DNA from: a virus
Lineage: Duplodnaviria; Heunggongvirae; Uroviricota; Caudoviricetes
Length of the DNA stretch: 31,137 bases
IMG/VR virus record: IMGVR_UViG_2565956719_000009
Strand: one strand, 5' to 3'
Position 1 is the stretch's first letter, and every line of letters starts with the position of its first letter. The notes beneath the pieces are model-generated. The model was not told the origin of the DNA. It made no database searches and saw only the letters and a program-made list of their open reading frames with translations. Of the stretch, positions 21,265-21,562 are shown one piece after another. The position numbers were made by a program, and so were the translations under genes.

Positions 21265-21358
21265 GCAGAATATTTTGCTGAAAAATAAGGCATGGCCACG
21301 CGGGCGGATAACATGAAATCCTGCGAAGTGGCGAAACGTAAGTGAATAAAAGTAAAAA

Positions 21359-21390
21359 CCCCGTTTGTTGGCACCAAGCGGGGTTTTGTG
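21359..21390 (+). terminator. Strong hairpin with T-run between the endolysin and the small membrane ORF
   Basis: CCCCGTTTG-TTGGCAC-CAAGCGGGG (9-bp stem, one G-U pair) followed by TTTTGTGTTT. Confidence 0.45.
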
Positions 21391-21423
21391 TTTCCTGACT
21401 CCGGAAAAGTCAAAGGAGAAAGT

Positions 21424-21561
21424 GTGTTTGATTTTAGCAAACTGATTCGGGAGATTCGAGTGATGGCTGAAAAATTATCCACCTGGAAGTTCATTCTTAT
21501 CTGGCTGGTGTTTGTGATTATGGCCTCTGGTTATTTCATCGGTCAGATACGCTGGTGGTGA
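21424..21561 (+). CDS. Candidate small membrane protein (45 aa), not in the ORF track
   Basis: GTG start 6 nt after AAGGAG RBS (alternative ATG at ~21463); ..[32 protein letters not shown] has one predicted TM helix; stop TGA sits 1 nt before the Rz ATG. Confidence 0.35.
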
Positions 21562-21562
21562 A

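Follow-up and report, generated by a model that had tools for sequence, protein, structure and literature searches.

The DNA analysed here, a stretch of 31,137 nucleotides (IMG/VR virus record IMGVR_UViG_2565956719_000009) that we refer to as the window, is a lambdoid prophage from an E. coli of the B2/ExPEC type. Its lysis region runs in the order class II holin, ydfR (interrupted by an IS3-family element), a 90-aa ORF on the minus strand, an rrrQ-type lysozyme, a 298-bp spacer (21265-21562) and the i-spanin gene Rz with Rz1 inside it. The spacer is 100% identical to those of UTI89, S88, APEC O1 and ATCC 11775, and of 5,426 complete E. coli genomes, 871 contain it with a coverage of at least 80%. 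It holds the small ORF considered here. The features in and around it, with positions in the window, are:

18510-18725, class II holin gene, upstream of ydfR
20731-21264, plus strand, endolysin gene, an rrrQ-type lysozyme of 177 aa (Phage_lysozyme, PF00959, E 4e-24; rrrQ in UTI89)
21265-21348, plus strand, 5' part of the spacer, the 3' flank of the endolysin gene, outside the mobile cassette
21349-21429, plus strand, leader module of hairpin, T-run, about 36 nt with a Shine-Dalgarno (SD) sequence, and start codon, which travels with the ORF
21355-21387, plus strand, intrinsic-terminator-like hairpin of 13 pairs with a 7-nt loop, followed by the T-run TTTTGTGTTT to about 21397
21413-21418, plus strand, SD sequence AAGGAG, 5 nt from the GTG start
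21424-21561, plus strand, small ORF of 45 codons with a GTG start, plus TGA (21559-21561)
21563-22027, plus strand, Rz i-spanin gene (PF03245, E 1e-52), its ATG 1 nt past the small-ORF stop
21783-21965, plus strand, Rz1 gene, embedded in Rz (PF06085, E 5e-20)

The endolysin begins with a hydrophobic, Gly/Ala-rich stretch that reads as a putative SAR signal. Its gene is intact in the window and in UTI89, and frameshifted in the RefSeq records of the otherwise near-identical prophages of ATCC 11775 and S88 (L001 and L002, 2466-3000). The flank that follows it (21265-21348) is shared with many Stx phages, in which query positions 1-86 or 1-95 match at 82-90%, and also with the Salmonella phage SPN3UB. 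It includes the conserved block CCACGCGGGCGGATAACA and folds into two small predicted hairpins (fold z-score -2.5); no Rfam match was obtained for it.

Further upstream, the IS3-family element (18940-20249) lies inside ydfR when compared with UTI89, in the late operon between holin and endolysin. Its transposase ORFs are on the minus strand, it carries an ALIL frameshift pseudoknot (19798-19914), and 3 bp are common to both of its flanks, as expected of a target-site duplication. The 90-aa ORF in the interval between ydfR and the endolysin gene (20353-20625, minus strand; phrog_2411, E 5e-55; WP_001351274.1) is antisense within the late operon, and its 3' end overlaps ydfR in relatives where that gene is intact. 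Other Rfam matches in the window (4537-4588 on the minus strand, 12253-12428, 16789-17035, 17114-17304 and 17582-17791) comprise DicF, a sok antitoxin RNA, three tRNAs and two tandem STnc100 elements upstream of the lysis genes.

The original prediction, made from the letters of the window alone, placed in the spacer a 45-codon frame beginning at GTG 21424 behind an AAGGAG ribosome binding site, and this is borne out by the sequence; the product has 45 residues, the first being V/M. An ATG at 21463 had been offered as the alternative start. It is indeed in frame, as codon 14 of the small ORF, but it is unlikely to be the only start because codons 2-13 are conserved at the amino-acid level (6/1/7 changes by codon position) and the SD sequence precedes the GTG. 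The start codon (GTG, or TTG in Edwardsiella, E41-1 and the Pseudomonas phage) keeps the same position, GGAG or GGGAG lies at the same distance from it in all homologues, and several homologues have no upstream in-frame start; together with the pattern in codons 2-13, these features place the start of translation at 21424. A 57-aa version of the ORF, extended mechanically to GTG 21388, was discarded, as the upstream in-frame region is interrupted or lacks a start in homologues. At the other end, the stop was thought to overlap the Rz start, but the junction reads TGG TGG TGA-A-ATG, a gap of 1 nt.

The small ORF had also been described as unannotated. That holds for UTI89 but not for some other records, where it appears as WP_000459345.1 or CAH23245.1. 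In the PGAP annotation of E. coli ATCC 11775 and S88 it is the hypothetical protein WP_000459345.1, while that of UTI89 omits it; phage CP-1639 has it as CAH23245.1, and among the 30 best identical matches eight carry an annotation. The product matches the phrog_6632 profile over its full length (residues 1-45 against profile positions 1-45 of 45, E 1.2e-29), which places it in PHROG 6632, a family that is already catalogued and uncharacterised. Searches of Pfam, NCBIfam, PADLOC and PDB sequences gave no meaningful match, and literature searches by accession, peptide string and PHROG identifier located no paper that discusses it or its function. Nor do the supplements of the Sakai Ribo-seq study, which used uninduced cells, contain the sequence. 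On the opposite strand, a 95-aa ORF (21207-21494) that covers the hairpin as well as the small-ORF start is listed as a hypothetical protein in CP-1639 (EC_CP1639_38). It contains many stops in divergent homologues and was rejected as probably a spurious call.

A frame this short, called inconsistently by PGAP and without a Pfam or NCBIfam family, could have arisen by chance in a non-coding spacer, with the hairpin merely terminating endolysin transcripts. Homologues include one in Salmonella phage SPN3UB (71% nucleotide identity), others in prophages of Citrobacter braakii, Edwardsiella ictaluri, Yersinia similis and Providencia, and still others in Salmonella phage SEN34, E. coli phage Rac-SA53 and Pseudomonas phages. 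Nei-Gojobori dN/dS in the ORF frame was 0.07-0.24 for all divergent pairs (against the Salmonella, Citrobacter, Edwardsiella and Yersinia homologues); the two alternative forward frames gave values from 0.5 to above 5. Across 13 distinct 138-nt sequences from several genera, the minimum numbers of changes by codon position were 33/12/46 (p=6e-5). The open frame is kept in all 92 loci that carry the family, with 45 codons, or 44 in the type ending in AIKG. A profile search of 1.84 billion cluster representatives yielded only 40 clusters, all of 32-86 aa and all with the N-terminal motif in common. The hairpin, for its part, moves with the ORF and not with the endolysin, as described below. A chance ORF in a non-coding spacer is contradicted by the dN/dS values, the codon-position pattern and the length and start conserved across genera; the comparative data effectively refute it, and we find it hardly credible. 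Purifying selection in the ORF frame only, with conserved length and start, indicates that the 45-codon frame is a genuine, evolutionarily conserved gene. Absence of the frame from related prophages had been named in advance as grounds for abandoning the original prediction; the frame is conserved there, and on this point the prediction survives.

The product is predicted to be a bitopic membrane peptide with a single TM helix (approx. residues 20-44) and its N-terminus inside. The AlphaFold2 model (pLDDT 86) has a helix at residues 4-17, a kink at 18-19 and a second helix at 20-44. The best 19-residue hydrophobic window covers residues 24-42, with a mean Kyte-Doolittle value of 2.13, so that the one hydrophobic helix claimed at the outset is also what hydropathy predicts. 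The N-terminal side carries five K/R and three D/E residues, while the C-terminal tail is QIRWW, and from this charge bias the N-terminus is predicted to be cytoplasmic. A holin would be expected to combine at least one TM segment with a highly charged, hydrophilic C-terminal tail and to permeabilise the membrane lethally; here, the part after the TM helix consists only of QIRWW, with one charge, which does not fit a holin. A distinct class II holin gene is moreover encoded at 18510-18725. The N-terminal helix is amphipathic and strongly conserved, with the motif SKLIRE[IL]RxMxEKL, and forms the best-conserved part of the family consensus (x[DN][FI]SK[LI][IL][RK]E[IL]RxMxE[KR]L[PS]xW[KR]F). 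GY and GxxxG are frequent in the TM helix of the family, and the C-termini vary (IRWW, AIKG, GLAKL and others).

The strong hairpin that had been noticed ahead of the ORF is present at 21355-21387 and is supported by covariation. It is the only terminator-like site in 20200-22400, and an A-run upstream gives it a bidirectional form. In the alignment, 98.6% of cells are paired and both sides have changed in five of the 13 pairs; none of 500 shuffles reached the score of the hairpin, and slid controls were 46-60% paired. This covariation shows, for the aligned homologues, a hairpin maintained by compensatory changes. A GC-rich stem-loop with a U-run, its structure kept in evolution, has the sequence-level hallmarks of an intrinsic terminator. 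Minimum free energy folding predicts a second hairpin, pairing the T-run with the SD sequence, in most variants; the SD did not come out as consistently more likely to be paired than in shuffled controls, and the inner stem cannot be aligned between classes.

To follow the leader beyond close relatives we used a covariance model (R1) of its 81 nt, built from 11 sequences, which scores 96.9 bits at the leader of the window. Full-length matches to R1 end at the start codon of family members that were not used in training (L102-L110, L097-L101 and L112). The matches were to SEN34 (E 6e-13), Rac-SA53 (E 1e-16), the Pseudomonas phage YMC11/02/R656 (E 5e-9), L105-L107 (E 1e-8), L097-L100 (E 1e-7 to 3e-6), L101 and L112 (E 3e-4 to 4e-4) and L108-L110 (E 0.011). 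Inspection by eye or folding found the hairpin and T-run in roughly 15 of 16 distinct contexts, the sole examined homologue without a hairpin being L111. When the window is compared with copies that lie next to baseplate genes (ETEC4090 and Y. similis), homology extends from approximately 10 nt 5' of the hairpin to the stop codon. Because the homology block spans the hairpin and the ORF, and because matches to the leader model precede other family members, these alignments indicate that the hairpin belongs to the ORF and not to the endolysin. R1 also matches upstream of different small TM ORFs, namely two paralogues in L097 and a 60-aa ORF shared by E. coli C7 and PhiR12_2. No match at the Rfam gathering score was found in the spacer of the window or in eight related loci, and nothing was significant at E values up to 10. 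The terminator-leader is absent from Rfam, and it precedes several families of tiny TM ORFs. A consensus scan of 21265-21423 for promoter-like sites on the plus strand found none.

The genes on either side of the unit differ widely between phages. It occupies the gap between endolysin and spanin genes in E. coli, SPN3UB, Citrobacter and Edwardsiella, and lies directly before Rz in most enterobacterial members. The endolysins that adjoin it there are of three unrelated types, namely a putative SAR lysozyme (window and SPN3UB), a 138-aa hydrolase (Citrobacter) and a 183-aa enzyme (Edwardsiella), and the holin ORFs upstream differ among these three contexts. In SEN34, Rac-SA53, ETEC4090 and Y. 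similis it is found between a V-like baseplate gene and a W-sized gene of 115 aa; in the Pseudomonas phage YMC11/02/R656 it sits among small ORFs in a lambda-like tail cluster; in L112 it separates a head-morphogenesis or DUF2513 gene from scaffold and capsid genes; and in L097-L100 it lies upstream of terminase, interleaved with toxin-antitoxin modules. The host range of these contexts extends from Escherichia to Pseudomonas. In several of them the next gene begins 1-7 nt past the stop, as Rz does in the window. Some close relatives have no insert at all: in K-12 Qin, rrrQ abuts rzpQ. Others hold something else in the same gap, either ant with a 48-aa TM ORF (BP-4795) or two to four other tiny TM ORFs. 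The GC content of the unit is 0.43, against 0.53 in the flanking genes. The alignments show the hairpin, leader and ORF intact between different gene pairs in different phages, and by this comparison the unit is a horizontally mobile late-operon cassette of approximately 205 bp, made up of a terminator hairpin, a leader of approximately 36 nt with an SD sequence, and 45 codons.

This distribution bears directly on the suggestion that a small membrane protein at this position would be an antiholin or another lysis regulator. To our knowledge, antiholins are either alternative translation products of a holin gene or co-vary with a specific holin. The known antiholins and lysis regulators include lambda S107, phage 21 S21-71, T4 RI, P1 LydB and the Mu releasin gp25. 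The cassette product resembles them in being small, predicted to be membrane-associated, encoded in or near a lysis cassette and, by the reasoning set out below, expressed late; it differs in having no constant lysis partner and in lying often outside lysis cassettes, and no sequence similarity to known antiholins or lysis regulators was found. A dedicated regulator of this kind would be an antiholin-like subunit, or one modulating endolysin or spanin, that sets the time of lysis through TM-TM contact with the class II holin, the N-terminal membrane segment of the endolysin, or Rz. Its place in the lysis cassette, 1 nt ahead of Rz (in E. coli, SPN3UB, Citrobacter and Edwardsiella), its single TM helix with a GxxxG-like motif, its probable late-only expression and the presence of other tiny TM ORFs in the same gap of other prophages are all consistent with such a role. 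A regulator should, however, keep its partner, and here the cassette adjoins three unrelated endolysin types and different holin ORFs. It also occupies stable baseplate, tail, head and pre-terminase positions in other phages, and it is missing from close relatives with the same endolysin, which have ant, other small ORFs or, in K-12 Qin, nothing. Moreover, the most conserved part of the peptide is the cytoplasmic helix and not the TM segment. Encoded by a separate gene with varied or no adjacent lysis genes, the peptide neither derives from a holin gene nor co-varies with a cognate holin. That no holin, endolysin or spanin accompanies it constantly speaks against a specific antiholin role. Our tests thus lent the suggestion no support, with the varied endolysins and the non-lysis loci speaking against it, and we regard a dedicated lysis regulator as rather unlikely. 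Weaker versions fare differently. A lysis-timing role is possible given that the gene is confined to late operons and its product is predicted to reside in the membrane, its position giving no indication either way, and the placement of the cassette directly before Rz in most enterobacterial members means that it may have a spanin- or lysis-linked role.

The cassette can also be compared with the morons of lambdoid phages, a concept from the work of Hendrix and Juhala. These are extra genes inserted between conserved late genes, such as lambda bor and lom and HK97 gene 15. A classical moron is expressed in the prophage from a promoter of its own, which precedes it, and is followed by a terminator. 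Like such genes, the cassette adds a gene that only some relatives carry, between genes that abut elsewhere (rrrQ-rzpQ of K-12 Qin); its base composition deviates, with GC below that of the flanks; it occupies various intergenic sites; and it encodes a small predicted membrane protein. Unlike a classical moron, it has its terminator upstream and no detected promoter, its ORF runs up to the next gene (1 nt separates the stop from the Rz start), and it is predicted to be expressed only late. The varied contexts, the relatives without an insert and the deviating GC content together suggest a moron-like accessory cassette and not a fixed component of the lysis machinery.

The close junction with Rz raises a different question, namely whether the ORF acts only in cis, delivering ribosomes to the Rz start past the terminator insert, with the peptide itself unimportant. 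The gap between stop and start is 1 nt, the last codons contain GGUGG, and in several other contexts the next gene follows within 1-7 nt. There is also a precedent in a prophage, where the IsrK-terminator-orf45-anrP module of Gifsy-1 combines transcriptional read-through with coupling by a uORF (PMC4825925). In that module a Rho-independent terminator is followed by a 45-codon ORF with two in-frame starts, its stop touches the anrP start, and anrP translation depends on it (PMC4825925). The cassette is similar in lying in a prophage late or regulatory region and in pairing a terminator with a 45-codon ORF that adjoins the next gene, but it has no sequence or Rfam relationship to the module, with no match to IsrK or any other Rfam entry, and no sRNA promoter was found upstream. 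The authors of the IsrK study report conservation of orf45 at the nucleotide but not the amino-acid level (PMC4825925), whereas the small ORF is conserved, and under strong purifying selection, at the amino-acid level. The motif is also kept where no downstream gene abuts tightly (L097 and L105). Identity with an IsrK-orf45-type coupling uORF or another known sRNA was rejected, given the lack of a match at E up to 10 and the purifying selection on the peptide, and we consider it very unlikely that coupling in cis is all that the ORF does. The amino-acid conservation indicates that the peptide has a function of its own.

A small hydrophobic peptide beside a bidirectional hairpin also recalls a type I toxin, or addiction peptide, whose antisense RNA would end at that hairpin. 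A- and T-runs flank the hairpin on both sides, a promoter-like site is present on the minus strand (21546-21517), and Rfam gave an ohsC-like match that is weak and not significant (E 6.9). However, the -10 element of the minus-strand site (ATTATG on the plus strand) is not conserved in homologues, the ORF has no detected promoter of its own, and there is no significant Rfam antitoxin match. The gene is co-directional with its neighbours in late operons and abuts downstream genes tightly. With no significant Rfam match and with the promoter-like site not conserved, the locus does not have the features of a type I toxin-antitoxin system. The antisense-RNA reading was rejected because that site is not conserved, and we give the toxin explanation very little credence.

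Among these alternatives we favour, with moderate confidence, a genuine gene in a mobile terminator-leader-ORF cassette, expressed only late, moron-like, and most likely acting on a target in the host or a common component of the inner membrane. The small ORF would be reached only by terminator-resistant, Q-antiterminated late transcripts and would be silent in the lysogen; late-only expression is suggested by the terminator lying approximately 36 nt from the start codon, with no promoter detected between them. A 5' terminator could silence the cassette in the lysogen wherever it is inserted, which would fit a membrane-active product. Once the late operon is transcribed, translation of Rz is probably coupled to ribosomes terminating at the TGA at 21559, given the 1-nt distance to the Rz ATG, the GGUGG in the Trp-Trp codons of the small ORF, which is a candidate SD sequence for Rz, and the 1-7 nt gaps elsewhere. 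Late in infection the peptide would then most likely use its cytoplasmic helix and TM segment to act on an inner-membrane target that belongs to the host or is otherwise common; this direction is suggested by the conservation of that helix and by the absence of a constant holin, endolysin or spanin neighbour. Its role may be accessory and moron-like, and it may modulate envelope physiology or the timing of lysis.

A broader reading is that such 'terminator-first' cassettes form a new class of self-insulated late genes, in which the peptide and the tiny TM ORFs sharing its leader modulate lysis timing or inner-membrane integrity. We think this quite unlikely; if true, self-insulated modulators would affect the release of phage and toxin in Stx-converting and other lambdoid phages. 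By sequence, the small ORF is in any case a real, conserved gene for a predicted membrane protein, widespread in E. coli and in Stx phages. Many Stx1 and Stx2 phages carry it, among them the model phage H-19B, whose annotation omits it, and if the peptide modulates lysis or the state of the membrane late in infection, burst timing and the release of Shiga toxin could change. The small ORF is also a clean case of a small-protein gene that annotation pipelines call inconsistently, and the conserved terminator-leader offers a testable regulatory module and a route to further genes of this kind.

Several other tiny ORFs share the gap or the leader. The ORFs of phrog_4906 (BP-4795 ORF50) and phrog_1115/4493/3246 and the 28-aa WP_032140280 resemble the small ORF in occupying the same gap, in size class and in having a single TM helix. 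Some gap ORFs have the same terminator-leader (E. coli C7 and PhiR12_2) and some the same IRWW-stop junction before Rz, but they belong to separate sequence families; with hhalign, one paralogue could be linked only weakly, through its C-terminal part (probability 56%), and another family not at all. Tiny single-TM ORFs of PHROGs 4906 and 1115/4493/3246 were seen in the endolysin-Rz gaps of E. coli E41-1 (L096, 2000-2645), E. coli C7 (L095, 2157-2485) and BP-4795 (L094, 2838-2984). The E41-1 gap contains four tiny TM ORFs in tandem, among them an unannotated homologue of the small ORF with a TTG start and a 28-aa ORF ending in IRWW 1 nt before Rz. In the GC-rich prophage L097, a 367-bp unit occurs three times (3598-3964, 4302-4668 and 5828-6194). 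Every copy opens with a strong sigma70-like promoter (TTTACA-17-TATCAT) and a short transcript that has a terminator of its own; after approx. 190 nt comes a hairpin-leader of the same kind. The small TM ORFs that follow the copies are one member of the family and two paralogues ending in AIRWW. ParE/RelB and HicAB-type modules are interspersed among the unit copies in L097-L100. Finally, SPN3UB (L005, approx. 1890-2000) carries an unannotated hydrophobic ORF of 36 codons, MSKRDVSALCFLMAAAVAISGNDGWGWLIFAGIIIL, which starts just 5' of the lysozyme stop and has a weak match to phrog_14810.
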